From a virus: 64,000 nt of DNA. The stretch is taken from positions 32,001 to 96,000 of IMG/VR virus record IMGVR_UViG_3300035698_016797. One strand, given 5' to 3'. Positions 3,203-42,377 of the stretch are shown here, in pieces (within the stretch, counting starts at the first letter, position 1; every line of letters starts with the position of its first letter). A program made the translations under genes and the position numbers. Under the pieces are notes generated by a model. That model did no database searches. It was not told where the DNA came from and saw only the letters and a list, made by a program, of their open reading frames with translations.

Positions 3203-3597
3203 ATTTCTTTCCGATAGGATTTCAACCAGAGGGAGAAGATCCATTACATCCTGACGACTATCATTTCCACACGATTAATAGGATGTTCGCATACGCTTTT
3301 TCTTGTCAACTTTGTAGACACTTCCAACCGGTCCCGGAAGATGCACTCTTTATCACGAAAGCTACATTTTACAGTATGCCCGTACTTGAGGCATGTCTCG
3401 TATGTACGGACATCGAAAACGAGGAAACAATGCAATGGGCTTACATAGTTGAGACCATTTTACCAACAACTTGGGATGAAGAGGCAAAGATATGGATACA
3501 AAACGAAGCGGAACAACATGACATTGTCTTCAATTTTAATCATACTAACTCCAATGGGTGTGCTAACGATAGTGTGCATCGCATTGGTTTTAATTGA
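3199..3597 (+). CDS. hypothetical protein
   Basis: 132 aa, CxxC motifs, ATGA overlap with upstream gene. Confidence 0.55.
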   Translation: MNFFPIGFQPEGEDPLHPDDYHFHTINRMFAYAFSCQLCRHFQPVPEDALFITKATFYSMPVLEACLVCTDIENEETMQWAYIVETILPTTWDEEAKIWIQNEAEQHDIVFNFNHTNSNGCANDSVHRIGFN

Positions 3598-3601
3598 CAA
3601 A

Positions 3602-5194
3602 ATGGTTGAAAGCATAGAAGAAGAAGGAAATAGATGGTTGAACCATGACATCTATTTGGTCCAATTTGCAGAACTAAAGAGAGGATGTATTTCAATGTCA
3701 GATGGCAAGCAGAACTACAGAGAAACAGACACGCTATTACGCTTTAATGGTGACAAAGACAATTCTGTAAAGACAAAGTTGTGTCGCGTAGCCTTAAGGC
3801 CGGTTAAAAGTTGGAGATCAACCAATCAGGACAAGGACTGTTGGTATTCCATCTTTGCGTGTATTCAAGATGGAAAACAAAAGTGGTTGTTAAAAAGGCA
3901 ATCCATCCATCAAGACACTATAAAATCGTCTGTGAGCGAAACTATCATTCCACACGCGAACGGAATGAACATTCTCAAAAGCCAAAATGAATCAAAAGTC
4001 ACCACCTTCAGACAAGAAGGTTTCAGTGGTTCAAACATTATGGCTGGCTTTTTCAACAACACTCTTACTATGGGGCAGAGTTCGAAGAGAATATTCGACA
4101 TCCTCACCGAATCGTTGGCTACCGAAGCTGATGACTCACCTCTTGTCAACACCCCGGAATATGACCCTGAAGACGATCTTACTACAAGGTATCGCTGCAA
4201 GGGAACAACCACCGGCAGAACAAATGGATTTATGTTGCGCCAAATAGACAGTGAACTCGAATGTATCTATTGCAACACCATGAGATGTGATGTCTTGTTT
4301 GTTACTTCCACAGATAGAGAAGTACCGTGTCATGGAGACTGTCTTGAGGCGGAAGTAGAGATGAATCCAGATGTCGGGATTGCTCTGGTAATACATGAAA
4401 CAGTGTTCGGAGGCATTCCAGAAGGCAGGCTTCCTGCTGGAGTAAATGTGCTTGAAACACCACTATCTAACTCCTCTGTTCCAGAAGACGACAAGTGTTG
4501 TTTCTGTGACAAGAAAAAGTGCACCGCTGACGGATATGTAAAAGGTAAACTAACATCCTTTCACAGACTCTGTGCCCTCAAACAGCTCACCCTTACACCT
4601 TGGGATGCTGAACTTGAATCTTTGATAGGTGACACCGTACTTATTCCAAGTGGAAGAGTTCCTCAAAGTATGGTTCCACACAAGGCTGTATGTTTTATGT
4701 GTGGAGTTTCTGGGGCAGACAGGGTCGCAACAGACTTCGTTAATGGCCAACCACGATTTCTGCATATCAAATGCCTAGAGGATGAGATCAACAAGGATGG
4801 GATGACAGAGGATGACCTCCTTGATCTTGCCACAGAACTTATGAAAGACAGACAGATAGAAGAGTGCTGGTATTGTGGAAACAAAGAAGGCAAACTTATC
4901 TGGTCAGAGGAATATTGTGTATGGGTTCACAAAGAATGCGTTATCAGAGACGTAATGGAAGACTCTGCCGACGCAATCAACCTCAACATTGCCGCAGAAC
5001 TTCTCACCCAAGAAGAATTGAACATCCCGCAAATAATACAAGAAACTGGTAAATGTAAAGAGCTGAACGGTTGTGTCAAGATGGCTCACATTTTCCTGAG
5101 AAGGGTAAATGATATGCTCGAAGGAGAAGAGAATGTCTTCGAACCTGCTCCCAACTGGATTACGAAGTTGGAAGAGGCATTAGACAATGAATGA
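3602..5194 (+). CDS. large protein with repeated CxxC...HxxC zinc-binding modules
   Basis: CFC..FHRLC, CFMC..LHIKC, CWYC..VHKEC; start uncertain (3602, or 3695 which has an AGAGGA RBS). Confidence 0.65.
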   Translation: MVESIEEEGNRWLNHDIYLVQFAELKRGCISMSDGKQNYRETDTLLRFNGDKDNSVKTKLCRVALRPVKSWRSTNQDKDCWYSIFACIQDGKQKWLLKRQSIHQDTIKSSVSETIIPHANGMNILKSQNESKVTTFRQEGFSGSNIMAGFFNNTLTMGQSSKRIFDILTESLATEADDSPLVNTPEYDPEDDLTTRYRCKGTTTGRTNGFMLRQIDSELECIYCNTMRCDVLFVTSTDREVPCHGDCLEAEVEMNPDVGIALVIHETVFGGIPEGRLPAGVNVLETPLSNSSVPEDDKCCFCDKKKCTADGYVKGKLTSFHRLCALKQLTLTPWDAELESLIGDTVLIPSGRVPQSMVPHKAVCFMCGVSGADRVATDFVNGQPRFLHIKCLEDEINKDGMTEDDLLDLATELMKDRQIEECWYCGNKEGKLIWSEEYCVWVHKECVIRDVMEDSADAINLNIAAELLTQEELNIPQIIQETGKCKELNGCVKMAHIFLRRVNDMLEGEENVFEPAPNWITKLEEALDNE

Positions 5195-6248
5195 TGAGTT
5201 TGTCATCAATTGTTCAAGTGCATGGAATCTATGTCCCACGTTTCCGACCATGATTCCTGAGGGATGTGGCTCTTTACATCCAAGAATGATGAGATCTACT
5301 TGGAAGACTGCAATACATCTGTATGTTGCATGTCATTTTAGAACGCACAAAACACAAGAAATGGTGCGTTCGATTGAACTCCCCTCTGATGCGATTACAT
5401 TTCTACACAACAACGAAGGTTCAATCAGAAGCAAGTGGGAGACTCACAGACTGGAAGCTATTAAGTTTGCGGCAAAAGCGTTTGCAGAACCAAACCAACT
5501 TTCATTGTTACAACTGATGGCAAAATATGAAAGAGTTGTATTTCGTTCAAGAGATACGTTTCTTGGGGTTAACGATTCTGGAGAAGGTGCCAATCAATGG
5601 CTCACATCAATGTGTGACAGCGTGCAGAATTATCACTTCCACAAAATGTTTATCATTGCCAAAGGTTCTGTTTATAACGGGAAAACAACTGGAACTTTAC
5701 TGTATCCTGAATGTAAGTGTGGTGCCAATTTGGGAAGATGCTATTCAATCCCAATGAGCAGAACCTCTTTTACTGTCGCAAAAAGAATGTTGGCAAACTA
5801 TGGATTTTCATTCATCTTAGATCCAAATCATCAAGCGTTGATGGAGGTGGACCAAGAAGAAGATGGTAGAATTGTCATAATTGATGGCACACTTGCAACC
5901 AAGGATGACGACAAGGTAAAATTTCAAACCGTATTGAGGAAGATATACACTTATCTTTTGTCAGCAGATTGTGAATCCCATGAACAGGAAAGACGTAAAA
6001 GTCATCAGCATAGAAGACGAACTGCAAGACGTCCTCATGTGGCAAAACATCGAATGGCATCGACGTTTACAATGTTCGGAACTCCTTTTGTATCTACTTC
6101 TTTTGCAGATGCATTTGATATTAACATTCCGATTGCAGAAGAGGAACCTCCGACTCTTCGAAACCTTGAACATCTAAGACCATCACAAAGAACAACTATG
6201 CAACAAAGAACAGCCTCATTCATTGACAGAAGAAGGAATACACGATGA
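5187..6248 (+). CDS. hypothetical protein
   Basis: 353 aa ORF overlapping both neighbours. Confidence 0.65.
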   Translation: MNDEFVINCSSAWNLCPTFPTMIPEGCGSLHPRMMRSTWKTAIHLYVACHFRTHKTQEMVRSIELPSDAITFLHNNEGSIRSKWETHRLEAIKFAAKAFAEPNQLSLLQLMAKYERVVFRSRDTFLGVNDSGEGANQWLTSMCDSVQNYHFHKMFIIAKGSVYNGKTTGTLLYPECKCGANLGRCYSIPMSRTSFTVAKRMLANYGFSFILDPNHQALMEVDQEEDGRIVIIDGTLATKDDDKVKFQTVLRKIYTYLLSADCESHEQERRKSHQHRRRTARRPHVAKHRMASTFTMFGTPFVSTSFADAFDINIPIAEEEPPTLRNLEHLRPSQRTTMQQRTASFIDRRRNTR

Positions 6249-6478
6249 GTAAAAGAAAAAAGAAAGCTGAATGTTTTTTCTGCAACAAAAAGGCAGACCG
6301 TGGAGACTTGGTCTCAATCTGTTACTCTGGAAAAAAGGATGACGGTACACCGTTCAGGACCGTAGTTAAAGCCTGTCTTGCACATCATGGAGTGCCAGAA
6401 TTGGCTAAAGAATACGAAGACCACGTCAACAGACAACAGGAGGAAACCCCGGATGAAGAAACTACACCGTCGTCATGA
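6245..6478 (+). CDS. small zinc-finger-like protein
   Basis: CFFC...ACLAH motif, ATGA overlap. Confidence 0.55.
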   Translation: MSKRKKKAECFFCNKKADRGDLVSICYSGKKDDGTPFRTVVKACLAHHGVPELAKEYEDHVNRQQEETPDEETTPSS

Positions 6479-6678
6479 GCAGAAGAAACGCCCTCTTGGG
6501 GTTGGAGCAATGAACTCCACACTTTTCACTCAAGTGAAGGGTAAGTGCGAGATAGCTGCCGCAGGCAGCTGTAAAGCTTCAAGTCTTGCCAACTGTCTGT
6601 CATGCAGTGTTGGAAAAAGCGTTCTCAACATCAAGCCTGAGTAAACACAGAATTCACAGTCGAAGGAGAAAGGACATC

Positions 6679-7206
6679 ATGATTAACGTACTGAAAGATG
6701 GAGCAGAAAGTACCATTGCAGGTGGTACTCTTCAGGATCTCATCAAGATCTTGAGCATCGGAGATGACTGGCAAATCAAGGTTGGAGGGATGGTTATTCC
6801 AAGCAACTCCGAAATCGAATTTTCAGATGGACACGAAGTCGTCTTCTCTTCGCCAGCATATCTACGCCTCTCTGAGAGCGACGAGAGTGTGGACGATACC
6901 GCTGAGGGTTCCAACGCAACGTCACCGGCAATGGAAGCGGTTGCCGCAGCGGGAATTCTCACAGCCGATACGGAAGCAGCACTTGCCGAACAGTTGGCAT
7001 CGACACCTTCAATTCGCATCATAGTCAGGAGTAAATCAATTGTCCTGCTTAATGATGGAAAGCCAACCCTGCATGACAAACTGCCAACTCCGTCGAAACT
7101 CAAGACGGCGCTTCACGTCATGGATGTTTTCCCTCTGTTGGGAACCTCCATTATTGTATGGAAGAAGAAAATAGAAGATGAGAATTCAGAAACACCTACC
7201 CCGTGA
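6679..7206 (+). CDS. protein with N-terminal ThiS/MoaD-like beta-grasp (Ubl) domain
   Basis: TLQDLIKIL.I..W.IKVGG..IP....FSDGHEVVF matches ThiS/MoaD pattern; strong RBS before ATG 6679. Confidence 0.55.
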   Translation: MINVLKDGAESTIAGGTLQDLIKILSIGDDWQIKVGGMVIPSNSEIEFSDGHEVVFSSPAYLRLSESDESVDDTAEGSNATSPAMEAVAAAGILTADTEAALAEQLASTPSIRIIVRSKSIVLLNDGKPTLHDKLPTPSKLKTALHVMDVFPLLGTSIIVWKKKIEDENSETPTP

Positions 7207-7761: not shown

Positions 7762-7784
7762 GCGCAAAATTGTGGAGGTGACTC

Positions 7785-8417
7785 ATGTCACAGAACGTAG
7801 CAGTATCATTCGGCGTCAACAAGATGAACCTGGAAATCGCAGGCCAGAGCCTCGCCACCGTCGCGCATCAGCTGAAGAGCCTCTTGGGGCTTGCCGGTGG
7901 CGAAACCCAGAAAGTCAATGGTCGCGAAGCTGCCAATGACTACATCCTCAAGGCTGGCGACAGGCTTGAGTTTGTGAAGGTCAGTGGTCGCAAGGGTGCA
8001 AACGTCTCCGTGACGTTCGGCGTCAACAAGATGAACCTGGAAATCTCAGGCCAGAGTCTGGCAACGGTTGCTCACCAGCTCAAGTCCCTCCTGGGACTTG
8101 CCGGTGGTGAGACCCAGAAGGTCAATGGTCGTACAGTGGCCAATGACTACATCCTCAAGGCTGGTGACAGGCTTGAGTTTGTGAAGGTCAGTGGTCGCAA
8201 GGGTTCGATCGCCGTCAGTGCCGGTGTGAACCGTATGGACCTGGAGCTGGCTGGTAAGACTGTCAGCCAGGTTCGTAAAGAGCTGGCAAGCCTGCTCCAC
8301 ATCGACAATACGTGGAAAGCGGAAGTCAATGGTGCCACCTGTGGTGCCACCAAACGCCTCCGCAACGGTGACAGTCTGGAATTCATCAAGGATTCCGGCA
8401 CCAAGGGTGATGGCTGA
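7785..8417 (+). CDS. tandem triple ubiquitin-like (beta-grasp) protein, poly-Ubl precursor
   Basis: three ~69 aa units ending SGRKG, SGRKG, SGTKG(+DG); KVNG and L..GD.LEF.K Ubl signature; GGAGG RBS. Confidence 0.9.
   Translation: MSQNVAVSFGVNKMNLEIAGQSLATVAHQLKSLLGLAGGETQKVNGREAANDYILKAGDRLEFVKVSGRKGANVSVTFGVNKMNLEISGQSLATVAHQLKSLLGLAGGETQKVNGRTVANDYILKAGDRLEFVKVSGRKGSIAVSAGVNRMDLELAGKTVSQVRKELASLLHIDNTWKAEVNGATCGATKRLRNGDSLEFIKDSGTKGDG
7807..8204 (+). repeat. 207-bp-period direct repeat (Ubl units 1 and 2)
   Basis: near-identical DNA, e.g. ttcggcgtcaacaagatgaacctggaaatc and gacaggcttgagtttgtgaaggtcagtggtcgcaagggt occur twice. Confidence 0.9.
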
Positions 8418-8447
8418 AACCATCAAATGCTATTGATGTAGCATTAG

Positions 8448-8481
8448 AGTCGGAGGGGGAATGTTCCCCTTCCGACTTTTT
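8448..8481 (+). terminator. Rho-independent terminator after the Ubl gene
   Basis: agtcgga..ggggaa-tg-ttcccc..tccgact followed by T-run. Confidence 0.75.
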
Positions 8482-8519
8482 CTTTCCAAACTGCACTAAA
8501 ACATGGAGGAATAACCAAC

Positions 8520-9251
8520 ATGGCGGCTCCAACCACAGTTCGAACCTACATTCGTATGGAAGGTGAGAGCACTGAACTAGTAGAGGAACGAGTCAAAAAG
8601 AGCTTTGAGACTGAATCTTTTCTTGAAGCACTGAGGCTCGAAGCTGGACTATCGTCCGGTCTCATTCCTCAAGATTGCATCTTCTTCTTCCGTAAACCAC
8701 CAACATCGGCAGAATCCGGTGATGATGCAGTTTACGTGATGGAAAAAGAACCTCGTACGGTCACTATGCACTTTCGCAATTCCGGTGCCAGCGGTAGCGG
8801 AACCGTTCATCCACTCAAAGTGTCTCTTCCGTACTGTCTTTTCTTCATACCCGTTAGAGGTGGAAACATACAGGACATTTGGCCAGTATGTTCAAAGCAG
8901 CGCATCAAAACCATAGATGATCCCATCTTTGTGTTGCCGATACCAAACGTGTACGATTCGGGCCATGGAAGAATTTGTGTTGGAAATCTTCGCATCGACA
9001 ATGAGAGTCCCATCCATGTGAGACTTAACAAGTTGGTGTCGATGGTTTTCACGTCTGAGTTCAACTTGGATTTGACCACGATCTATCCTTCTGTGATGGT
9101 GAAGAAGTCTGGTGAAGATCCATCCATTTTTGGATGGGCACACAAGTCGGAAGGCAATTCGTTGTTTGGATGCTCCGATGAGGTAGAGTACCTGCCTCAT
9201 AATTACGGAACATTCAAAGGTCTAATGGGGAATATAGGATGTCAACTGTAA
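8520..9251 (+). CDS. prokaryotic E2-like conjugating protein (E2 family D / PRTRC protein B-like)
   Basis: SLPY.LF and LPIPNVYDSGHGRICVG motif with candidate catalytic Cys; sits between Ubl and JAB. Confidence 0.7.
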   Translation: MAAPTTVRTYIRMEGESTELVEERVKKSFETESFLEALRLEAGLSSGLIPQDCIFFFRKPPTSAESGDDAVYVMEKEPRTVTMHFRNSGASGSGTVHPLKVSLPYCLFFIPVRGGNIQDIWPVCSKQRIKTIDDPIFVLPIPNVYDSGHGRICVGNLRIDNESPIHVRLNKLVSMVFTSEFNLDLTTIYPSVMVKKSGEDPSIFGWAHKSEGNSLFGCSDEVEYLPHNYGTFKGLMGNIGCQL

Positions 9252-9595
9252 AGCAGTTTGACAGAATATTGAGTGCAACTGAAAACATTCCAACCGTCAA
9301 TGCTCAACCAATCAGTTCCGTGTTTGGGGTTTTGACAAAAAACAGTGTTCCTCGGTTGCTGACAATTACCGGAAATGCGACAACTATCATGTTGGCGCAG
9401 TTTTTACTGTTCTTGCGCAGACAGTTGAAGCATGTAAAATGTTTGATGGTCCTTGACAACAAAAACAAGGGTCAAGTAGATCGCGCATTCGTTAAGGCTG
9501 AAGTGATTCAGAGAGACAGAGATGCTGCAAAAGCCATTGCGGCCAAGAAAAAAACCAAGGGTAAGACGGTCAAAAAGACCAAGGAGTTGTTCTGA
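9239..9595 (+). CDS. hypothetical protein within the Ubl operon, Lys-rich tail
   Basis: 118 aa, overlaps E2 stop and JAB start. Confidence 0.6.
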   Translation: MSTVKQFDRILSATENIPTVNAQPISSVFGVLTKNSVPRLLTITGNATTIMLAQFLLFLRRQLKHVKCLMVLDNKNKGQVDRAFVKAEVIQRDRDAAKAIAAKKKTKGKTVKKTKELF

Positions 9596-10680
9596 TGAAC
9601 AGATTCGTGACGTCCCAAGGCATCCCAATCATTACAATGGAAGATGGAGATGATGTGGAGTCCATTACGGACCCCATCTGTTTCATCGTTTCATCCAAAG
9701 GTTGCTTCGTAAAGAAGACCAATCGGTTCTACACTTCCGTAACCGCAACAGGAAAAGACGGAATCAGCGTGCTTGGAGAAGTCAAGCCGTTCGTATCTTT
9801 CGCAGTAACAAAGCTGCCGCTTCCGACATTCCGTGCCATTCGCCAGTTCTTCACTGATGTCTACAAGAAGATGCAATCTGAAGTGGCCATCATGTTGTAC
9901 TACGATTTCGATGCGAAGTTGTGGTTGTGGGTGGTTCCTGAGCAGAAGGTAACTGCCGCCAGTGTTGACTATGAGGAGACCGACAAATCCATCATCATCA
10001 ACCAGGACAACGAACGTATTGAAGGTCCGGTTCCAGACAGCTTTACGAAGCTCGGAAGTATCCATTCTCATGCAGGAATGGGAGCCTTCCATTCTGGTAC
10101 TGACAACGCTGACGAATTCCACTTCGACGGCCTACACATCACCATCGGCTCGTTCAACAAGGCAAGCAGTGGAGATTGTTCGTACTCTGCACGCTGGATC
10201 ATCGCCGGAGAAGAAGTGAAGACTGAAATCACGGAAGTGGTTGCAGATCTCGATCCTCCTGGAGAATACCCCGAAGATGCTCATGAAGCAGTAAAGAAGG
10301 GTACATCTGCCAGTCGCACTTATGGATCAGGACGTTCCATTGGTGCCGGTACAGGAAAAGGAGGTGCGGGTCAATCGGGAATAACAAACCCTACCCAGGC
10401 GGCGAAAGGCCGCCAGACGACGCAGACGACTCAGAGTGGCAAGCCTGGTACGAAACCTGGGGAAGGTGCGACGGTGGATACAACTGGTAAAGCTCCAGCG
10501 ACTGGTAAAGCTCCAGCGACTGGTAAAGCTCCAGCGACTGGTAAAGCTCCGACAACTGGGAAAGGTCCAGTGAAGGGTTTGACGGCAGGTGACACTCAAG
10601 CAGTGACTCCTCTCGTTCCGGCGAAAGGTTCAGAAGAAAAACCGGGCCAGGAAAAAAAAACCAAGACAGAGTCATCGTAG
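9595..10680 (+). CDS. JAB/MPN+ metallo-isopeptidase (PRTRC protein A-like) with low-complexity tail
   Basis: GSIHSHAGMGAFHSGTDNADE = HxH-x7-S-x2-D JAMM motif. Confidence 0.85.
   Translation: MNRFVTSQGIPIITMEDGDDVESITDPICFIVSSKGCFVKKTNRFYTSVTATGKDGISVLGEVKPFVSFAVTKLPLPTFRAIRQFFTDVYKKMQSEVAIMLYYDFDAKLWLWVVPEQKVTAASVDYEETDKSIIINQDNERIEGPVPDSFTKLGSIHSHAGMGAFHSGTDNADEFHFDGLHITIGSFNKASSGDCSYSARWIIAGEEVKTEITEVVADLDPPGEYPEDAHEAVKKGTSASRTYGSGRSIGAGTGKGGAGQSGITNPTQAAKGRQTTQTTQSGKPGTKPGEGATVDTTGKAPATGKAPATGKAPATGKAPTTGKGPVKGLTAGDTQAVTPLVPAKGSEEKPGQEKKTKTESS
10483..10572 (+). repeat. 18-bp tandem repeat x5 encoding TGKAPA
   Basis: actggtaaagctccagcg x3 exact plus two degenerate copies. Confidence 0.9.
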
Positions 10681-10840
10681 AGAATCCGGCGAGTGCGGGA
10701 ATACAATTCCTGAAAACGACTCCAGATCAGAGCAGTTCATAGAAAGAATGGTCGAAAGGTTCGGCTCTGAAGTTGGAGACAATCTTCAAGAGGCTGTTGA
10801 GTTGGCACGAGCCAGCCAACAGTCAGAAGGATAGAACGAT

Positions 10841-11551
10841 ATGTACAAGAATGTCATAGTTATTGGCTGTGGAGGAATTGGATCACATCTTCTTCCTCCG
10901 CTGACACGATTCTTCGCTTCAATGGAGAAAGAGAAGCGTCCCAAGGAAATGAGAATCGTTGATGGAGACAAGTATGAGCAAGGCAATGCCGATCGGCAAG
11001 AGTTTGTTGCTCGTCAAGTCAACCAGAATAAAGCAGAGGCGCAGAAGGAACGCTGTTCAGTCATTCACGAAGGAATGATGGACTACTATGCGTTCCCGGA
11101 ATACCTCGGTAGCGGCAATATTGACAGCATTATTGAAGAGGATTCAATTATCTTCATGTGTGTTGACAATCATGTTTGTCGCAGTATTGTGTCGAAACAC
11201 TGTCAAACGTTGAACAACGTTGCTCTCATCACGGGAGCAAACGAACTCACCGACGGCAACGTACAGATTTACGTCAGAAAAGATGGAAAGGATATGTCTC
11301 CTCCAATAGAAAAGAGACATCCTGAAATCAGCACGGCGAAAGATGGTGACAGATCAATGATGAGCTGTGAGGAGATTGAGAAGTTGCCCGGTGGTGGACA
11401 AATCATTCTGGTGAATGCTACCGCCGCGAATCTTCAATTTCAACTCGCTTGGGAATGGCTCTCTATCGGAAAGCTTCCTTTCGAGGAGGTATATTTCGAC
11501 GTTGAGTCAATCGGAATGCGTGGGGTGCCAAATGACTACTCCAAAAAGTAG
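10841..11551 (+). CDS. ThiF/E1-like activating enzyme
   Basis: VIGCGGIGSHL, VDGDKYE..N..RQ, NKAE, CVDNHVCR, candidate catalytic Cys in MSCEE. Confidence 0.9.
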   Translation: MYKNVIVIGCGGIGSHLLPPLTRFFASMEKEKRPKEMRIVDGDKYEQGNADRQEFVARQVNQNKAEAQKERCSVIHEGMMDYYAFPEYLGSGNIDSIIEEDSIIFMCVDNHVCRSIVSKHCQTLNNVALITGANELTDGNVQIYVRKDGKDMSPPIEKRHPEISTAKDGDRSMMSCEEIEKLPGGGQIILVNATAANLQFQLAWEWLSIGKLPFEEVYFDVESIGMRGVPNDYSKK

Positions 11552-12341
11552 CACAGCTCCTCCGGTAAAAAAGTCGGAAGCAAAAGCCAAAACAACCGCC
11601 AAGAAGGACGAGAAAAAAGCCGTAGTAAAGAAGGCTGACAAAGCTTCTGCGGCACCTATTCTGATTCCTGAAGAAATGAGGATTAGGTGTTTGTTTGTTG
11701 ATGGACTGGCTCCAAATCACGTAATAGTTGCCTACGGAGACGACAATGCGTCTTTGCTGAGCACTGGAGTGTGTGTTCGTGATCCAGAAAACAATAAACG
11801 GTTTTATCATATCACACAAATGTTGGTTGGTTTCACCCCAGAAACGGCCGGTCCTTACTTTCAGCCGTTGACTGGTCAAATGTTGCTGGCATCATTGAAG
11901 CATCACAAGGCTAAACTGACATTTCCTTTGACTGTATTTAGAGTTGTTCATCTGTGGGAAGATGGGAACATCATTGGATGGTCAAAAAGAAGTCAAGAGA
12001 AAGCCTTGGAGCGCAGTACTTCGATGTATCTCTGTGCACAGTGTAAAATTTCTGTGACAAATGGAGTTTACGCTCCTGGATGCTCTCCGTATTCAGAGGT
12101 TATAGCTAAAGCTGTAACCATGGCAGAGAGTAAAGTTGCGTTTCACAATCTGTTGGCAACTCGTGTGATTGAAGGCAACCACGATTTATGGTCGTTCTTG
12201 TCGGCCAACGCCTACCTTGATAGTCTGTGTACAAGGTGTCGTCTCTTGGCAATAAAAAGCCTAACTGGAGAAATAGTTACTCAGATTGCGACAACAGGAA
12301 GAATGAAACCGGTGTTTCAAAACGAAAAGGAGGTTGAGTAA
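11532..12341 (+). CDS. hypothetical protein (Lys/Ala-rich N-terminus, two CxxC)
   Basis: likely start MTTPK at 11532 overlapping the E1 end. Confidence 0.6.
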   Translation: MTTPKSSTAPPVKKSEAKAKTTAKKDEKKAVVKKADKASAAPILIPEEMRIRCLFVDGLAPNHVIVAYGDDNASLLSTGVCVRDPENNKRFYHITQMLVGFTPETAGPYFQPLTGQMLLASLKHHKAKLTFPLTVFRVVHLWEDGNIIGWSKRSQEKALERSTSMYLCAQCKISVTNGVYAPGCSPYSEVIAKAVTMAESKVAFHNLLATRVIEGNHDLWSFLSANAYLDSLCTRCRLLAIKSLTGEIVTQIATTGRMKPVFQNEKEVE

Positions 12342-13270
12342 TGGCTCAACAAGTAGTCTCTCATACCGTTTATATGACGGCAGAGACGGATGTAACTTTA
12401 CCACAGCTGGAAGGAGCAAACGAAGCTCTCGTTGAAGAGCTTAGAGTACTTCTTCTTGGCAATAAGAAGGTTGAAGCGGTTCAGAAGTTTCGTCTGGCAA
12501 CAGGCTGTTCTCTGAAGGATGCTGTAGACCGACTGATTATCGGCTGGTGGATGGAGTTTGCACAAAGTCTCATTGATCCGTCAAAATACCCAGAAAAGTG
12601 CTGTTTCAATTGTGTTGGAACGTGCGGCAAACTTGCCAATCTTCAATCTACAAATGGAGCAAAACTTTGGGACATTGACAATCAGATTCCATGTGGAACC
12701 AATTGCAGTGTGTTTATGACCCTTGAAGCCCTCAAGAAGAGTTTGGTGATCAAGGATAGCGCAGTACAGGTAAAACTTACCAACTCTGCCAACAGCAGTG
12801 TGACGAACATCATCGTTGACACTCCTATTGTGAAGACAGAAAGAAGCAATCGTGATGGCAAGGTTCTTGAAACGAAGTTTGTGATCCACTCAAAATCACA
12901 AGTTGTAACAAAAGTTTCAGGTGCAATCTGCAAACTGTTTCTTGCCGGTTTCCAATGGTCCTCAACCAATGGTTTCGAAGGAACTCTGACTGTTGGGACA
13001 TGTGAACCAAAAAGCAAGGAAACGTGGGAAAAATATCTTGAAAGAGCTTCTGAGGAAGTAAGAAAAGCTCGTGAGTGCGTCACCGAAACGTACCAGGCAA
13101 TGGATGAAAAGACTTTGTTCGCGGCTATGGAAAAATTCCTGACAAAGCGTGGACTGAAGAATGTTATTGCCAACTATAACGGTGATATTGAGTCTCTGTG
13201 TGACGACATGTTCCCAGATCAGGAACTGGTGTATGTTGCCATTGAATTCGCAAGGGAAGATTTGTCATGA
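12341..13270 (+). CDS. hypothetical protein with ribosomal bL12 C-terminal-like motif
   Basis: GNKKVEAVQKFRLATGCSLKDAVD resembles bL12-CTD KIEAIK.YRE.TG.GLKEAK. Confidence 0.55.
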   Translation: MAQQVVSHTVYMTAETDVTLPQLEGANEALVEELRVLLLGNKKVEAVQKFRLATGCSLKDAVDRLIIGWWMEFAQSLIDPSKYPEKCCFNCVGTCGKLANLQSTNGAKLWDIDNQIPCGTNCSVFMTLEALKKSLVIKDSAVQVKLTNSANSSVTNIIVDTPIVKTERSNRDGKVLETKFVIHSKSQVVTKVSGAICKLFLAGFQWSSTNGFEGTLTVGTCEPKSKETWEKYLERASEEVRKARECVTETYQAMDEKTLFAAMEKFLTKRGLKNVIANYNGDIESLCDDMFPDQELVYVAIEFAREDLS

Positions 13271-14169
13271 TTGTTATGATTGACCAATACGTTAAATTGC
13301 CAGACACTTCCGATTTCAAACCCATTGTTCCGAAGAATGCCAATGAAGGAAAAATCATTCTTCAATTCAAAACGACCTTTCGGAATCCTGAGACGCTCAG
13401 TATTATGAAAGATTGTCTGTTGTCCGCCGGTCATGAATGTGAAAGTTCTCGCATTGACCAGAAATGGTTAAATGAAGCCTTCACGCCAATCATGCACGAA
13501 ATGATCAAAGGGTTTGTTATATGGGGACTGCCGACCTTCATGAAGAAGGCAAGAGAGCATTCTCCAAGAGGGTTCGGAAGTGGTAGTAAAAGACGAGTTT
13601 TTATGAGAAGCCTCTTTGATCAGTTTTTGGAAGAGGGTTTTGCCTTAAAGTCGGCAGAAAACTTTGCACTCTCATCATTCTCTTCTATTGGATGGAGAAT
13701 GCCTGAAAGTATTCGTGTTAGAGGACAAGGTTGGACTACTCAAATTGCTCGCTCTTTCGGAAACTTTATTAACAATGTAAACCGTGGCAGAACGTCACAT
13801 TCAATCCTCAACGTGCTAAGAAGTTGTACTCCATACCCGTATGTGACAGAAGAGGGAGATCAGTTCGTACTTCCAAACAGTGACAATAAAAATGTGGTTG
13901 ATGCATGTCATCAGTTCACTAACATTATGAACGGCGTCATGGATAACACGAACGCAATATTCAACGAGATTGAATGGGTCTCTGACACCATGTCAGACAT
14001 GAATCCTTGCGGTAGAGCAGGATGTAACGAAGGAAACATGTGTTCAAGCTGTTACGATAGGCTGTACGATCTTGTTGATGGATGTGCCGGAAAGACTGAC
14101 GCTAACAGGTATTTTGTGACAGCTGTTGAAAATCGAGAAACCTTTGATAGCATAACGCCGTCAGAATAA
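13267..14169 (+). CDS. hypothetical protein
   Basis: 300 aa, C-terminal Cys cluster. Confidence 0.65.
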   Translation: MIVMIDQYVKLPDTSDFKPIVPKNANEGKIILQFKTTFRNPETLSIMKDCLLSAGHECESSRIDQKWLNEAFTPIMHEMIKGFVIWGLPTFMKKAREHSPRGFGSGSKRRVFMRSLFDQFLEEGFALKSAENFALSSFSSIGWRMPESIRVRGQGWTTQIARSFGNFINNVNRGRTSHSILNVLRSCTPYPYVTEEGDQFVLPNSDNKNVVDACHQFTNIMNGVMDNTNAIFNEIEWVSDTMSDMNPCGRAGCNEGNMCSSCYDRLYDLVDGCAGKTDANRYFVTAVENRETFDSITPSE

Positions 14170-14200
14170 CAACATTTAGTATTCAAGAAGGAACAGGAAA

Positions 14201-14962
14201 ATGGAAGAAACACCATCGTTCGTAGCAGAGGCACAGCGCCAACTTGAAGCGCAGAATGCAACACTTCAAGCAGAAGCGGAGGCTATGCTACAACAAACCG
14301 CGCAAAACGAAGAAAACATATCGGAACGTGTTACGGCTCAAGTCCCAGAAATGATGACGGCAGACAATGTTCTGTCTGAAGAACGTGAAAAAATGGCAAT
14401 TCTATATGCCGTAAACACGTATCTTGTCATCACCAATCGTGGATTTGGAGTTATTGACCTACTTAATTCGTGGGTAAGCAGCACTGGGTCAACGATTCCG
14501 GTTATGGATTTCTCGTGGTGTTCCGACAACTTGATCAACACCAACATCTTGAATGGGACAGTAAAACTTGATGACATTGTTGATTGGTTGAAGTCAATTG
14601 ACCCAACTCTCAGCGAAATGTTTCTTTGCTTCCATGGCAAGGTTGACGACACATTTGTCCAATTGGTTGCCAACATGGGCAGAGCAGAAGGTCTTCTGCC
14701 TTTCGCAGTTAAACTTTCACGTTCTTTCGACAAGATACCCGAGGGTACAAGAGGCTTTATCTGGCCACTTCCAAAAGGGGCAGGAAAACTCGAAGGCATG
14801 GAAGGTTTTGTACCTATCTTGCTGGAAAAAGAATTCCCCTTCTGTCACTCGTTTGAGATGGTGACTGGTGAGCCGATAGAAGGAGTCAATAAAAGAGGTT
14901 TCTTCATCTCACTTTCTTGCTTAGAACAGGATAATGGGGTGATGGTTGCCAAAAAGTGTTAA
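14201..14962 (+). CDS. hypothetical protein immediately upstream of the RT (candidate partner)
   Basis: 253 aa, Q/E-rich coiled N-terminus; stop 9 nt before RT start. Confidence 0.7.
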   Translation: MEETPSFVAEAQRQLEAQNATLQAEAEAMLQQTAQNEENISERVTAQVPEMMTADNVLSEEREKMAILYAVNTYLVITNRGFGVIDLLNSWVSSTGSTIPVMDFSWCSDNLINTNILNGTVKLDDIVDWLKSIDPTLSEMFLCFHGKVDDTFVQLVANMGRAEGLLPFAVKLSRSFDKIPEGTRGFIWPLPKGAGKLEGMEGFVPILLEKEFPFCHSFEMVTGEPIEGVNKRGFFISLSCLEQDNGVMVAKKC

Positions 14963-14971
14963 GGAGTACGT

Positions 14972-16249
14972 ATGCTGAATCAATTGTCACGACAGTTTGG
15001 AGAGCTGCCAGTAGAACTTGTTGCTAAAGATCAAAGCGACATTCCGATAGTGTCGTTTATTCAAGCTAGGCATGGGCCGGTATTGCCTGGTCGAAATATA
15101 AACGAGAAGGCATTTGGCCAACTACTTGAACTTCTGCTCGAAGGCAAGATTGTCAGAGTTAGATGTAATATAGATGCTTTTGCTCAAGAGATGGAGCATC
15201 TGAGAAAACTTGCATCTAAAAATGTTCTCATGGTATCTGCTACGGATATTTGGGAACATAATAGAGGTGAAGTTTACAAATTCAGGTTTAACGCATCAAG
15301 CGAATACTATATGGGACTTGATGAATTAGTAAATCCTGTTGATATAATTGCTTCTGTTCTTGGAGTGGAGGGAGAACTCCTTACAAGTCTTATGGCAGAT
15401 ATTTCGTCTCACTACAATCGCTTTCCATTGACAAAAAGGGATGGTTCGCAAAGATGGATTAACGCTCCAGACGATGATCTGAAAGGGGTTCAGAGACGCA
15501 TAATGAACAGAATGCTTTATCGTGGATGGGCAACTCCATGTGCTCACGGATTCATTCATGGAAAAAGTATTAAGACAAACGCAGAACGTCATGTTGGAGC
15601 CAAGGTTGTCGTCAAAATGGACATATCCAAATTCTTTGACAACATAGGAATTGACAAACTTAATACAGCCTTTGTTCCTCTGCTGAAAGCAGAAGAGCTT
15701 TTCACAATCAATTTTATCTCATCGTTGTGTACTCTCAACGGGGTCACCCCACAAGGAGCACCAACGAGTCCCGCACTATCAAATCTCGTGGTAAGAAACA
15801 TGGACTTTGCCCTCATGGGTTTAGCCAGAAAACATCACGCAGTCTACACGAGATATGCTGATGATTTGGTATTTTCCTCGAAAGATAATCGTGCATTACC
15901 ATCAATCATCCCTTTGGTAATGAACGTTGTCAACTCGAATGGGTTCCGAATCAACATGAGAAAAACCGGAGTCTTTCGCGACGGTGGAAGAATGCCGGTA
16001 ACCGGACTGGTAATCAATAAACATACAAACGTTCCTCGTAAGGAGCGTTATAAAGTACGTGCGGAGCTTCATAACATTGCAACTGGAAGAAAACCTGCAA
16101 GCGAAGAGGATCTTCAGCGTCTCGCCGGAAAGGTGGCGTTCATCAATATGGCGAATCCGCAACAGGGAGCACGTTTTGATAGTTTGATGACAGCAGCAAA
16201 GGCTGGTGCCGTACAATCAACGGAAGGTGCGGAAAACAATGACAGTTGA
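14972..16249 (+). CDS. retron-type reverse transcriptase with ~130 aa N-terminal extension
   Basis: KRDG..R.I..P, AHGF..GKSI..NAERH (region X), KMDISKFF, PQGAPTSP.LSN, YTRYADDLVFS, VTGL (region Y). Confidence 0.92.
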   Translation: MLNQLSRQFGELPVELVAKDQSDIPIVSFIQARHGPVLPGRNINEKAFGQLLELLLEGKIVRVRCNIDAFAQEMEHLRKLASKNVLMVSATDIWEHNRGEVYKFRFNASSEYYMGLDELVNPVDIIASVLGVEGELLTSLMADISSHYNRFPLTKRDGSQRWINAPDDDLKGVQRRIMNRMLYRGWATPCAHGFIHGKSIKTNAERHVGAKVVVKMDISKFFDNIGIDKLNTAFVPLLKAEELFTINFISSLCTLNGVTPQGAPTSPALSNLVVRNMDFALMGLARKHHAVYTRYADDLVFSSKDNRALPSIIPLVMNVVNSNGFRINMRKTGVFRDGGRMPVTGLVINKHTNVPRKERYKVRAELHNIATGRKPASEEDLQRLAGKVAFINMANPQQGARFDSLMTAAKAGAVQSTEGAENNDS

Positions 16250-38143: not shown

Positions 38144-40504
38144 CTATATTGTGCTCAACAGTTGCAGATCATTTACTATGAACGACGACCCGCGTCCTAT
38201 TGAACCGTACAGCAGGTAAACCTTACCGATCTCAATCTGTTCTTTCAACGTCGGGTATTTTGATGGAAATATTATTGCATCCATGTCTCTTTGATCTTTC
38301 GATATGGAAAGGAATGCCATTTCCTGACCTTGGGTCTTACCTTTCTTTACTATATGCTCTCTAAAGTCATTTACAATGCCCGCGAGACATAAATCTTCAC
38401 TTTTTCTATTGAACCCCAGACCATCAACTACATCTGCAATATCAGTAGTGGTCTCACTGCGAATGATTTTCTCGAACGGCGTCATAGGAGAGGCGGTAAG
38501 ATATGCATCCGTCATAGTCTTCTCGTCGTCAAGCATCTCTTCGAAAGTCTGATGCTCTTCACTCTCTATCTCATCCAGGTCACACTGTGTAACCTCTTCT
38601 CTCGTGAGTTCTTTACGTAGCTTTGTGCCTTCAGCCTTACGCTTCTGCTGTTTCTTCATCTTGTCTACGATGGGTCTGAGGTAATGATGCTTGGCAATCA
38701 ACACCTCTCTGTCACTGCCGAAGCAATCCAGGGCACCGGCACGAATCATTGAGTCAACAGCTTGACTGTTCAACGTGTTGAAGTCAGTTTCTATGAGGAA
38801 CTCAGCCATGTTGGTATACTTACCTCTGGCCTTGACAACTTCACGAGCCGCGTACGGACTGACGTTCTTAATGAATGCCAAACCGAACTCAATCTTCTCG
38901 CCATCACGAATCTCGAAGAACGCTTCACTCGTCATGATGGAAGGTCTTATCACATCAATCCCGAAGAACCTTGCCTCTTCCACATACATGCCGACCTTAG
39001 AAACCTGTGAACCACCATACTCTCCGTTGAGAAGTTCACACAGGAACTCGATTTTGTAATGAGCTTTCAGATAAGCGGCCTGGAAAGTGATCTTACCATA
39101 AGAAGCGGCATGACTTTTGTTAAAGCTGTACCTCTGTCCCTTCTCAATGTATCCAAACACCATCTCCGCATCTTCTCTTGTTCTTCCCTTACGTTCCATT
39201 GCACGCTCGATGAACGGTTCTTTGATCTCTGCCATCTTCGATGCAATCTTCTTACCGATAGCTTTCCTCAAGTTGTCCGCCTCTGCGAGTGTGAACCCTG
39301 CAAAGTCCTGAGCCGCTCTCATTGCCTGCTCCTGATACACCATGATGCCATAGGTTTCCTTAAGCGCACCCTCAAGAGACTCGTGCATATATTCGACCGG
39401 TTCATCACCTCTTCTTCTGGCAATGAAGGTCTGGGTGGTGCCTGCATCCATGGTTCCGGGACGAATGATTGCATTCATCACAACCACATCCATGAAGTCT
39501 TCCATGCCCATGGTCCTGCAAAAGTCCTGCACATACTTACGCTCAAGCTGAAAGATGCCTGTGGTATGTCCATCGGCAAACAGCTTTAGAGTGAGAGGAT
39601 CGTTGAGATTGATCTTCTCTATATCTATCTTGGGTTTACCATCGAAAGCAAGGTCTCTGTTGATCCTCTGCACTGCCTTATCAATTACAGTCAAGGTGTT
39701 CAAGCCGAGGAAATCCATCTTGAGGAACCCTGTGTCCTCAATGTCATACATGTCCCATTGGGTTATGTATACGTCTTCCTTCTTTGTTCCAGCTTTGAAG
39801 AACAGAGGCATGTATTCAACCACATCCTTTGGTGTAATCAGAACTCCAGCCGGATGTTTGCCCGGTTGACGAACCTTTCCAGAGAGGAAGCCTGCCATCT
39901 GAAAGAGTTCAGGATACAAGGCTTGCTGTTTCTGAAGGAATTCAGAGCCTTCCACCGCATCTTCAAGTGTCCTACAGGACGCAGGGATAGCCTTAGAGAT
40001 GGTGTCACCAACCTGAACGTAGTTGTCTATCTGTTGTGCCCTTGAGACGTCTCTGATGGACGCTTTCGGCCCCATGGAGCCAAATGTGATGATGTGTGCG
40101 ACTCTATCAGCACCGTAGCGGTCGCGAACGTATTCGATAACGCGTTTTCTTTGCTCTTTACAGAAATCCATATCTAAATCTGGCATAGATATACGCTCTG
40201 GATTGAGGAACCTCTCGAACAGTAGGCCGAAGTAGATTGGATCAAGTGTCGTAATGTCCAGTGCATAGCACAAAATACAGCCAGCACCACTACCACGACC
40301 AGGACCAACTGGGATACCTCTCTGCTTAGCCCACGAAATGATGTCTTCAACGATCAAAAAGTAATCACAGAAGTTCATCGACTCTACAACCCCAAGCTCA
40401 TATTCTTTACGCTTTAAGTACTCTTCTGTTGTAGGGATGCCCTTGGCAATCCATCCCTCTTCAACCCTGAATCTTAGATAGTCAAAATTTAGATTGTTAG
40501 ACAT
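38144..40504 (-). CDS. dnaE: DNA polymerase III alpha, catalytic (palm/fingers/OB) part of a split gene
   Basis: GPGRGSGAG, FERFLNPER.SMPDLDMDF, G.HPAG, K.DFLGL, FNKSHA.SY, GL..IK.V; GGAG RBS. Confidence 0.93.
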   Translation of the reverse strand: MSNNLNFDYLRFRVEEGWIAKGIPTTEEYLKRKEYELGVVESMNFCDYFLIVEDIISWAKQRGIPVGPGRGSGAGCILCYALDITTLDPIYFGLLFERFLNPERISMPDLDMDFCKEQRKRVIEYVRDRYGADRVAHIITFGSMGPKASIRDVSRAQQIDNYVQVGDTISKAIPASCRTLEDAVEGSEFLQKQQALYPELFQMAGFLSGKVRQPGKHPAGVLITPKDVVEYMPLFFKAGTKKEDVYITQWDMYDIEDTGFLKMDFLGLNTLTVIDKAVQRINRDLAFDGKPKIDIEKINLNDPLTLKLFADGHTTGIFQLERKYVQDFCRTMGMEDFMDVVVMNAIIRPGTMDAGTTQTFIARRRGDEPVEYMHESLEGALKETYGIMVYQEQAMRAAQDFAGFTLAEADNLRKAIGKKIASKMAEIKEPFIERAMERKGRTREDAEMVFGYIEKGQRYSFNKSHAASYGKITFQAAYLKAHYKIEFLCELLNGEYGGSQVSKVGMYVEEARFFGIDVIRPSIMTSEAFFEIRDGEKIEFGLAFIKNVSPYAAREVVKARGKYTNMAEFLIETDFNTLNSQAVDSMIRAGALDCFGSDREVLIAKHHYLRPIVDKMKKQQKRKAEGTKLRKELTREEVTQCDLDEIESEEHQTFEEMLDDEKTMTDAYLTASPMTPFEKIIRSETTTDIADVVDGLGFNRKSEDLCLAGIVNDFREHIVKKGKTQGQEMAFLSISKDQRDMDAIIFPSKYPTLKEQIEIGKVYLLYGSIGRGSSFIVNDLQLLSTI

Positions 40505-40724
40505 TGCCAACTCCACATATAGAAAATTCTCTAGTTAATCTGTAACACACCTCTATCATCAGTGCTTTATTCTGAGACGGAACATCATCCCACGGCACAG
40601 AAGATTCGTCTCTTGTTGAATAACCAAACGATGGGGCAAGAGACTCGTACAAATAGTGAAAGCGTTCAGCCAAATATTCCGGGTAAACGTTTCCAGCCTT
40701 ATTTTTGAATCTTTTTTTGGTCAT
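40497..40724 (-). CDS. small hypothetical protein between the two dnaE halves
   Basis: 75 aa, overlaps both neighbours. Confidence 0.55.
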   Translation of the reverse strand: MTKKRFKNKAGNVYPEYLAERFHYLYESLAPSFGYSTRDESSVPWDDVPSQNKALMIEVCYRLTREFSICGVGNV

Positions 40725-42351
40725 TTTTCCACCCTATAAATTTGTCATAGTCAGAGGATTGTGTTATGTCAAAACTGGGAAACTTGTACCCTTGAAAGTC
40801 GAGTGCAAAGTCAACCCTATCTGTTATCTCTAATGTAGCGTCTGCCATTTCAGCGGTCAAGCTACCTGTTATCATTTGACCTCTATTCTTAAAGAAGAAG
40901 TCACTTGATGAGAACTCAAGCCCACCACTGTTGCCAGTAGCAACCTTCAGCAAAGTGTTTTGAATAGCGTGGTCTTCTTGCTTTAAGTAGTGACAGTCAT
41001 TAGTCATCACACTCTTAACGCCTTCGTCTTCTGCCATGTTAAGTATCTCTGGGACTAAGTCGTCGTACAAGGGCCAATCAATATGCATTACTTCGTTGTA
41101 AAACCTGTCTCCAAACATTCCTTTCAACATCTGCATGTTAGCTCTGGCCTTATCAATATCACGAGCTTCTTCTGAAAAGTGATATGAAACTGGACTTTTG
41201 TAGCAACCAGACAGTACAATCACACCTTCAGAATGATCCGCAAGCATCTTCTTGTCAATCCTGGGACGATAGTAGAACCCATCTCTCCCGGCAATAGAAC
41301 AGAGCTTCACCAAATTCTGCCAACCCTTCTCTGTCTGAGCAAGCAATACAAGGTGGTAATTACCACGGTTCTCCCGACTTGATGCGTCATCAACGTAGTA
41401 AGCCTCGAACCCATGTATTGGCTTCACTCCTACATCCTTACATGCCTGCTGTTGTTTATAGCATCCAAACATATATCCGTGGTCAGTCAACGCAAATGCT
41501 GGCTGTCCTATGTCGTGAACGTGTTGAGCAATAGCCTCTGGTGACGGAACCCCGTCAAGAAACGAGTATTGTGAGTGAACATGAAGATGAACAAACTCTC
41601 CGTTATCTTCTGGCTTTTCAGGACTATCCTCTTCTATCCACACATGTTTTACCTCGCCCCCATCATCTACGACCTTAAAAGCTTCTGGGTCTGGTCTGGA
41701 AAGTTCTTGTGCCACTACCTTGGCGGCTTCTACTAGCGAAACCTCAGCCTGTTTGTCTTCTTCTTCGAGCTTTTTAGAAAACTCATCAAATGAAACGTGA
41801 TCATAGTCTTCTATTACAATCGGTCGCGTTGCAACATCGTCTTCGAACATTGAGGATGGAACGTATACTGTTTCTGTATCTGTGGATTTATTAAATTCAT
41901 AAACGAGTTCCGTTTTTTTGATTAACTCAACAAAGTTATTAGGAAGATGTGTTGAATGCTTACTCTGAGAATACTTAGCTCCCAACGTGCGAGCCACAGT
42001 TCTTCCGAACTGTTCGGCAGAAACCAATTGTATTACAGAGTTCTTGGGATTAAAAAACACAAACGTCTTCGGCATTAAACCTTCTACGGCAATCCGATCG
42101 GCCAAATAAAAAAAGTATCCCTTCTTACCACCCCTCTTAAGTACAACGGGAATCCTTCTGTGTTCATCCTCGTCTCCAAGATTATAATCTACGATAACCT
42201 CAAAGTGAATACTTTTACCAACCGAAATAAGTCTGTTACCTATCAATCCCATACGGCCAGTAGGTTTGAACGATCCAATATCTGAACCGAAAACGAGGGG
42301 AAGAGTGTGTGACACATACGCATCAATTGTATTTAGATTGAGATCTGCCAT
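40699..42351 (-). CDS. dnaE: DNA polymerase III alpha PHP part with ~240 aa unknown N-terminal extension
   Basis: FVHLHVHSQYSFLDG, ALTDHG, HLVLLA, YYRPRID, TNDCHY; AAGGAG RBS. Confidence 0.88.
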   Translation of the reverse strand: MADLNLNTIDAYVSHTLPLVFGSDIGSFKPTGRMGLIGNRLISVGKSIHFEVIVDYNLGDEDEHRRIPVVLKRGGKKGYFFYLADRIAVEGLMPKTFVFFNPKNSVIQLVSAEQFGRTVARTLGAKYSQSKHSTHLPNNFVELIKKTELVYEFNKSTDTETVYVPSSMFEDDVATRPIVIEDYDHVSFDEFSKKLEEEDKQAEVSLVEAAKVVAQELSRPDPEAFKVVDDGGEVKHVWIEEDSPEKPEDNGEFVHLHVHSQYSFLDGVPSPEAIAQHVHDIGQPAFALTDHGYMFGCYKQQQACKDVGVKPIHGFEAYYVDDASSRENRGNYHLVLLAQTEKGWQNLVKLCSIAGRDGFYYRPRIDKKMLADHSEGVIVLSGCYKSPVSYHFSEEARDIDKARANMQMLKGMFGDRFYNEVMHIDWPLYDDLVPEILNMAEDEGVKSVMTNDCHYLKQEDHAIQNTLLKVATGNSGGLEFSSSDFFFKNRGQMITGSLTAEMADATLEITDRVDFALDFQGYKFPSFDITQSSDYDKFIGWKNDQKKIQK

Positions 42352-42377
42352 GCTTAGTACTCCTTTTGTATGCAAGT

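Follow-up and report, generated by a model that had tools for sequence, protein, structure and literature searches.

We describe here a gene of a 181-kb salt-lake phage from which the phage most likely makes a protein tag as a cleavable multi-copy precursor, in the manner of eukaryotic polyubiquitin. Such a cleavable head-to-tail array of modifiers is regarded as a hallmark of eukaryotic ubiquitin. The gene encodes three ubiquitin-like (Ubl) units followed by a two-residue cap, and it heads a cassette that also encodes an E2-like protein, a JAB metalloprotease and a ThiF-type E1. Directly established in this work are the anatomy of the gene, the predicted fold of its product, the intact catalytic motifs of the neighbouring enzymes and a comparative signature in the internal tails of its relatives. 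On balance, and with moderate confidence, we favour reading the Ubl gene as a polyubiquitin-like precursor that would be cut by the JAB into two kinds of modifier, an A type and a B type. The comparative evidence that favours this reading comprises internal tails that are kept as well as terminal ones, the co-variation of tails within a protein, a copy number that ranges from one to four units and fusions of whole modules.

Anatomy of the Ubl gene

The gene is a single open reading frame of 210 aa on the plus strand, at positions 7785-8417 of the window, by which we mean the whole 64,000-nucleotide stretch of phage DNA that was analysed. A Shine-Dalgarno-like GGAGG (7774..7778, plus strand), read from the sequence, stands 6 nt 5' of the ATG at 7785. 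The family profile described below aligns end to end along the product, with zero linker between the three units. Unit 1 (7785..7997; 71 aa, residues 1-71; 109 bits against the profile) and unit 2 (7998..8204; 69 aa, residues 72-140; 110 bits) are of the A type and both end in VSGRKG, while unit 3 (8205..8408; 68 aa, residues 141-208; 103 bits) is of the B type and ends in DSGTKG. The translation then closes with an Asp-Gly (DG) cap and the stop codon (8409..8417). Directly 3' of the gene, a hairpin (8446..8489, plus strand) that has a stem of 15 bp and a run of T was recognised as terminator-like by consensus match only. A preliminary description of this locus had proposed the same reading frame and unit boundaries, the tails SGRKG, SGRKG and SGTKG and the DG cap, and translation of 7785-8417 on the plus strand agrees with it exactly. 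Its broader picture, a head-to-tail Ubl array in which each unit carries the terminal G-x-K-G of its family and the last a short C-terminal cap, was likewise borne out. The protein thus has the organisation of a polyubiquitin-type precursor, namely head-to-tail units free of spacers, a conjugatable tail on each of them and a cap at the C-terminus.

The repeat is old and the array is genuine

Units 1 and 2 had been described as nearly identical and unit 3 as divergent. Indeed, units 1 and 2 share 93% protein identity and 85% DNA identity, and unit 3 has 30 of its 68 residues in common with unit 1 (44% identity). The 31 of 207 bases that differ between units 1 and 2 fall in 18 synonymous and 6 non-synonymous codons, giving a dN/dS of ~0.11 at a dS of ~0.6. 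With a DNA divergence of 15% and these values, the duplication must therefore be old, with both copies under purifying selection. The last 39 nt of the two units are nevertheless identical (8166-8204 = 7959-7997), a run with a chance of ~3.5e-4 given the 18% divergence elsewhere in these units. Because this stretch takes in both tails, some of the matching between tails may reflect gene conversion and not selection by an enzyme.

The array is present in a complete IMG/VR virus record of 181,030 bp with direct terminal repeats. Logan contigs from separate salt-lake metagenome runs (X1-X4) gave an independent view of the junctions: the junction of units 1 and 2 is bridged by contigs of runs X3 and X2 and that of units 2 and 3 by a contig of run X4, in each case with no differing letter. 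One 952-bp contig of run X1 skips exactly 207 bases, corresponding to unit 2, and is joined within the 39 bases that units 1 and 2 share (window 7958-8166). It encodes a protein of 141 aa (P0002) made of unit 1 and unit 3; either the population includes a genuine two-unit variant, or the assembly took a shortcut. A 2.4-kb metagenome contig, 99.5% identical, breaks exactly where unit 3 starts, as is expected because of the repeat. The 15% DNA divergence of units 1 and 2, together with the contigs that bridge the junctions, rules out a chance array, an assembly stutter or a third unit produced by misassembly.

A widespread phage family with several multi-unit lineages

A search with an eight-unit profile against 1.84 billion cluster representatives returned 1,488 relatives at E<=0.001. 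Most of them are single Ubls placed at the C-terminus of a ~150-aa protein that starts with a Rho_N/SAP-like domain, and about 28 proteins of the family have two to four units. We examined 33 viral loci. An E2-like gene is found in 31 of them, the two loci without it being contig-end fragments; JAB and E2-like genes adjoin the Ubl gene in every viral locus with enough flank, and an E1 is present in all such loci except L031. Therefore, the Ubl gene belongs to a phage-borne system, separate from the defence operons of bacteria that have been studied to date. Two gene orders occur among the viral loci. The order seen in the window (Ubl, E2-like, JAB, E1) is shared by the di-Ubl loci L008 and L009, whose contigs measure 175-178 kb, and in part by L024 and L031. 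For P0003 (on a 148-kb contig) and the three- and four-unit proteins P0008-P0015, a phage context is presumed solely from the other loci fetched.

In most of the related phages (L002-L023; for example L004:8300-9202 and 9846-16190), the Ubl gene sits between two ThiF-like genes. The second of these encodes a protein of ~300 aa that ends TGAA or TGGA, the E2-like domain of these phages is part of proteins of ~850 aa, and the cluster lies directly upstream of genes resembling those for the beta-prime and beta subunits of multisubunit RNA polymerase.

A maximum-likelihood tree of the units agrees with the earlier suggestion that there are two Ubl types, since the units form two clades that are kept across lineages (support 91/97 for A and 99/96 for B). 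The units are ordered A-A-B in the window and A-B-B in P0003 and P0009, and the tree places the expansions in P0008 (four units), P0011 (three units) and P0014 separately. Judged by this tree, copy number has evidently risen independently in several lineages. Whole modules are joined in other ways too. At L013:6734-7693, one open reading frame of 319 aa holds two complete Rho_N/SAP-linker-Ubl modules, joined directly after RKG, and at L029:1509-2356 two near-identical modules of this kind are separate, adjacent genes. Moreover, L057:1287-1724 and L059:2021-2458 encode a Ubl with the end GGKKG that continues in frame into an unrelated C-terminal domain of ~75 aa with a PPHFH motif, a fusion after KKG that recalls those between ubiquitin and ribosomal proteins.

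Internal tails are held to the standard of true C-termini

Throughout the family the tail follows the pattern E-F-x-K-x-x-G-x-K-G and is used as a free C-terminus. Among the 28 multi-unit proteins, G-x-K-G ends 34 of 39 internal units, compared with 25 of 28 terminal units. In all 15 di-Ubl relatives, which are 30-59% identical to one another, the E, F, K, G, K and G of the internal tail are invariant, so that the internal tail is held at least as strictly as the true C-terminus. Four outliers (P0020, P0070, P0095 and P0108) have N-terminal beta-grasps that are tail-less, so the beta-grasp fold does without the tail.

A second signature comes from the one tail residue that varies. For pairs of units with less than 40% identity in their bodies, this residue is the same in 11 of 18 pairs within a protein versus 129 of 1,193 between proteins (Fisher 5e-7), and for pairs with 40-60% body identity in 13 of 15 versus 35 of 294 (Fisher 6e-10), counts that are not fully independent and to which gene conversion could contribute. 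Such co-variation within a protein would fit one cognate enzyme that reads every tail. E1 activation requires a free carboxylate. With an internal tail held to the terminal standard, cleavage after its glycine is therefore, in our view, the best explanation.

The same data bear on the main rival explanation, in which the protein is an intact multi-domain modifier of the ISG15, FAT10 or Ubl3 kind: only its last tail would be exposed, once the DG cap is taken off, the whole three-domain protein would be conjugated or assembled, and the internal tails would be linkers only. We consider this unlikely, yet it deserves to be taken seriously. It is kept alive because the three-beta-grasp Ubls of Bil/Bub operons act intact, forming Ca-dependent filaments (PMC11601603). 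The N-terminal Rho_N/SAP domains of relatives and the tail-less beta-grasps of the four outliers also indicate that N-terminal cargo is tolerated. Indeed, most relatives keep an uncleaved Rho_N/SAP domain before the Ubl, and upstream units could ride along in the same way, which counts against a precursor. However, a linker has no need of an invariant G-x-K-G that matches the terminal tail across proteins only 30-59% identical, nor of a P3 residue that varies in step with that of its fellow units, and a copy number that goes from two to four in whole-unit steps is also at odds with an intact modifier.

The predicted fold resembles a linear ubiquitin chain

AlphaFold2 run from the single sequence reached a pLDDT of 37.8, and this model was replaced by a run with a 35-row alignment. 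The resulting model has three beta-beta-alpha-beta-beta grasp domains, one per unit, with a mean pLDDT of 89.7, a pTM of 0.51 and 137 residues at pLDDT>=90; its confidence dips at all three tails. Taken together, the high pLDDT, the low pTM and the dips would fit units arranged as beads on a string. The gap between pTM and pLDDT, that is, a model without confident packing between domains, speaks against an intact modifier.

In a Foldseek comparison with the PDB, the model is most like linear chains of four and three ubiquitins (E 1.6e-9), and further matches are ISG15, a Citrobacter multi-ubiquitin protein, FAT10 and a Naegleria polyubiquitin. The matches to ISG15 and to the Citrobacter protein would suit the intact-protein explanation; the Foldseek probability is 1.00 for the ubiquitin chains and for ISG15, and the Citrobacter protein stands at rank 10 with a TM of 0.28. 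In Pfam, the Ubl protein gave only matches in several stretches to ThiS, TGS and Ub-Mut7C; it matched neither the ubiquitin domain nor, at E<=0.01, Multiubiquitin (PF14452), and the latter result also counts against an intact modifier. A sequence search against solved structures returned nothing informative for the Ubl units, the E2-like protein or the JAB.

Tandem Ubls have been seen before. Two or three of them in some bacterial operons were called 'reminiscent of poly-ubiquitin' (Iyer et al. 2006, PMC1779556), and Ubl3/Multiubiquitin (the mlr6139 family) of Bil II/Bub operons shares with the phage protein three tandem beta-grasps and a neighbourhood of E1, E2 and peptidase genes. The domains of Ubl3 are non-equivalent, however, with domains 1 and 2 tightly packed and Ca-bridged dimers or filaments formed, whereas the phage units are near-equivalent repeats with tails of their own, zero PF14452 match and no confident packing in the predicted model. 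By its sequence and its model, then, the phage protein is evidently not a Ubl3/Multiubiquitin.

Enzymes of the cassette and their phage neighbourhood

The order of genes in the window is Ubl, E2-like, a 118-aa protein, JAB and ThiF/E1, all on the plus strand. The E2-like protein (8520..9251, 243 aa) has a PN motif at residues 142-143 (IPNVYD from 141) and Cys153, and matches Pfam Prok-E2_D at 24.8 bits, just below the 25-bit cut-off. Its Cys is kept in 11 of 11 aligned phage homologues and the PN motif in most of them; we call the protein E2-like on the strength of this sub-threshold match together with the conservation of its motifs. The open reading frame that follows (9239..9595) encodes 118 aa with a Lys-rich C-terminus and had zero matches in Pfam, NCBIfam, PHROGs and PADLOC. 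The preliminary description had inferred that a JAB releases two Ubl types with different targets, and an intact JAB/JAMM metalloprotease lies two genes downstream of the Ubl gene (9595..10680; domain at about residues 1-215; PRTRC_A 28 bits, Prok-JAB 18.7 bits), with E96, H157, H159, S167 and D170 present and invariant in 20 homologues. The C-terminal part of this protein (window 10483-10570) consists of low-complexity tandem TGKAPA repeats, where an independent metagenome contig breaks. The ThiF-type E1 (10841..11551, 236 aa) has GCGGIGS at residue 9 and a candidate Cys176, and matches Pfam ThiF at 65.9 bits. As read from the sequence, the catalytic residues of the JAB, the E2-like protein and the E1 are all intact.

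A complex of the JAB (residues 1-215) with the tri-Ubl protein was predicted alongside three controls. The runs agree in at least 89% of contacts, with a partner pLDDT of at least 75. The complex scored a weak 0.53 and the best of the three controls 0.00, on a scale whose mark was reached by 58 of 80 solved complexes and 2 of 110 mismatched pairs, those passing at a score of 0.60 or below being 7 of the 80 solved complexes and both passing mismatches. Since solved JAB-Ubl complexes exist, the pass may come from likeness to them.

The best Pfam matches of the units (ThiS, TGS and Ub-Mut7C) and the short, ThiF/MoeB-like E1 also bring to mind a sulfur carrier, in which ThiS/MoaD-like units would be trimmed by the JAB and then receive a thiocarboxylate from the ThiF enzyme for a thiolation pathway of the CysO/Mec or QbsE/QbsD kind. 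Pairs of a JAB and a capped sulfur carrier are indeed known (Iyer et al. 2006, PMC1779556). We think this very improbable: the cassette includes an E2-like protein with a Cys in all 11 aligned homologues and, in most of them, a PN motif, the neighbours scanned showed neither a rhodanese nor a desulfurase domain, and tandem carriers and fusions to SAP domains are unexpected for a cofactor pathway.

Elsewhere the window has the gene content usual for a large phage, with genes for RuvB, RNA ligase, ribonucleotide reductase, DnaB and RecA. Pol III alpha appears to be split into two genes on the minus strand (38144-42375), one for a PHP-domain protein (40699-42375) and one for the polymerase core (38144-40516). 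A few genes past the E1, and in the same orientation, comes a retron-type reverse transcriptase (14972-16249; PADLOC RT_XIII, 262.8 bits). On the upstream side of the Ubl cassette, a 581-aa protein (3449-5194) has three CxxC...H..C zinc-binding repeats and matches the PHD-like zf-HC5HC2H_2 at 24.3 bits, below its cut-off, and a 77-aa protein (6245-6478) has a CxxC motif akin to that of the larger one; these two zinc-motif proteins could be candidates for RING/PHD-like E3s. We also considered the open reading frame at 6586-7206, counted from an internal Met, as a further beta-grasp from its resemblance by eye, and rejected it when the family profile missed it even with filters off. A GenBank phage collection yielded zero DNA or protein matches, a plasmid collection gave Ubl matches at chance level only, and PHROGs and PADLOC held nothing for the Ubl protein, the E2-like protein or the JAB.

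Relation to PRTRC and Bil cassettes

The gene set is reminiscent of PRTRC, the ParB-related, ThiF-related cassette (TIGR03734-03742), which has the order Ubl (C), E2-like (B), JAB (A) and ThiF. The best or only NCBIfam matches of the phage E1, JAB and E2-like protein are PRTRC_ThiF, PRTRC_A and PRTRC_B, all of them far below the curated cut-offs (69.3 bits against 144.75, 28 against 101.8 and 12.2 against 131.45, respectively). An annotated protein C also has the GDxLxF strand of the phage units and ends KTKG. The earlier statement that PRTRC protein C ends in GTKG therefore holds for the terminal TKG and fails for the full GTKG, as judged from this one annotated protein of a Methylomonas plasmid; a Photobacterium plasmid cassette, tried as the PRTRC reference, proved too divergent, with no recognisable protein C, and the Methylomonas plasmid was used. 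In contrast to the phage protein, protein C is a single unit, and PRTRC is found on plasmids beside ParB. The PRTRC_C model (TIGR03738, cut-off 45.95 bits) matched nothing at E<=1 across the entire phage genome and none of the single units at E<=5, alignment of the unit profile by hhalign to the annotated PRTRC_C gave a probability of 1.9%, and no PRTRC ParB (TIGR03734) was found at E<=0.01 in the 181-kb genome.

Bil (bacterial ISG15-like) systems of types I and II share with the phage cassette the order Ubl, E2, JAB and E1. In Bil, the JAB pre-processes the modifier past a conserved glycine, and some Bil Ubls have two or three beta-grasps. The Bil E1 is large and multidomain, unlike the phage E1 of 236 aa, and Bil is a bacterial anti-phage defence, whereas the cassette in the window is a phage gene set. 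In PADLOC (2023 library, which may lack Bil models), the E1 matched weakly to CBASS E1-E2 only (best 27.8 bits) and the Ubl, E2-like protein and JAB had no match. We take the phage cassette, on these profile comparisons, to be a distant cousin of PRTRC and Bil cassettes and not a member of either.

Bil systems tag phage tail proteins (doi 10.1101/2023.09.04.556158), so a counter-measure by the phage is conceivable. The tandem beta-grasps might then be a decoy or scaffold that is not conjugated at all, binding or saturating a Bil-like defence of the host, or a structural protein, with vestigial tails. This seems very improbable to us, in that vestigial tails would not stay invariant and the phage has its own complete set of E1, E2-like protein and JAB with intact catalytic residues.

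A proposed polyubiquitin-like precursor in a phage

Under the precursor reading, the JAB would cut after the final glycine of each unit tail. Two A-type monomers and one B-type monomer would result, the last of them freed of its DG cap. Each glycine thus exposed would be adenylated by the ThiF-type E1, and the unit would be handed on to the E2-like protein, at Cys153, to be attached to lysines of its targets. The tandem copies and the hairpin right after the Ubl gene would supply the modifier, which is consumed, in excess over the enzymes. We infer cleavage at the internal junctions and conjugation of the units to targets. The JAB is the obvious cutting enzyme because JAB proteases of Bil systems trim the residues after a conserved glycine (doi 10.1101/2023.09.26.559546). 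Caps after the last glycine range from 0 to 9 residues across the family and over half of the family is without one; the main task of the conserved JAB may therefore be the removal of conjugates.

The likeness to eukaryotic polyubiquitin of the UBB/UBC/UBI4 type extends to spacer-free head-to-tail units, a Gly tail on each, a capped last unit, a copy number that varies by lineage and a dedicated protease at hand, and linear ubiquitin chains are the best structural matches of the phage protein. There are differences as well. The phage units are ThiS/MoaD-like and have no sequence kinship with ubiquitin, their tail is G-x-K-G where that of ubiquitin is R-G-G, and they are non-identical (93% and 44%) and of two conserved types. 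The role of protease would fall to a JAB metalloenzyme of the same operon, the setting is a phage, and processing is a prediction. Among tandem Ubls the phage cassette stands out by this phage setting and by comparative signatures of processing that are without parallel in those previously studied. Our literature search found no description of a phage poly-Ubl or of a phage-encoded Ubl/E1/E2/JAB system, which does not prove that there is none.

To conclude, if the precursor reading is true, this would be the first polyubiquitin-style gene organisation outside eukaryotes and their viruses. The enzyme set is compact and self-contained (a 236-aa E1, a 243-aa E2-like protein and a JAB), which should make it easy to reconstitute. 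We give about even odds to the fuller picture, in which large phages have a widespread Ubl conjugation system of their own, several lineages have convergently become polyubiquitin-style, and the JAB cuts their products into A and B modifiers with perhaps different targets. The findings raise the question of whether poly-Ubl processing has arisen independently outside eukaryotes, and of what a phage may gain from tagging with its own Ubl, using the same chemistry that bacteria turn on phages.
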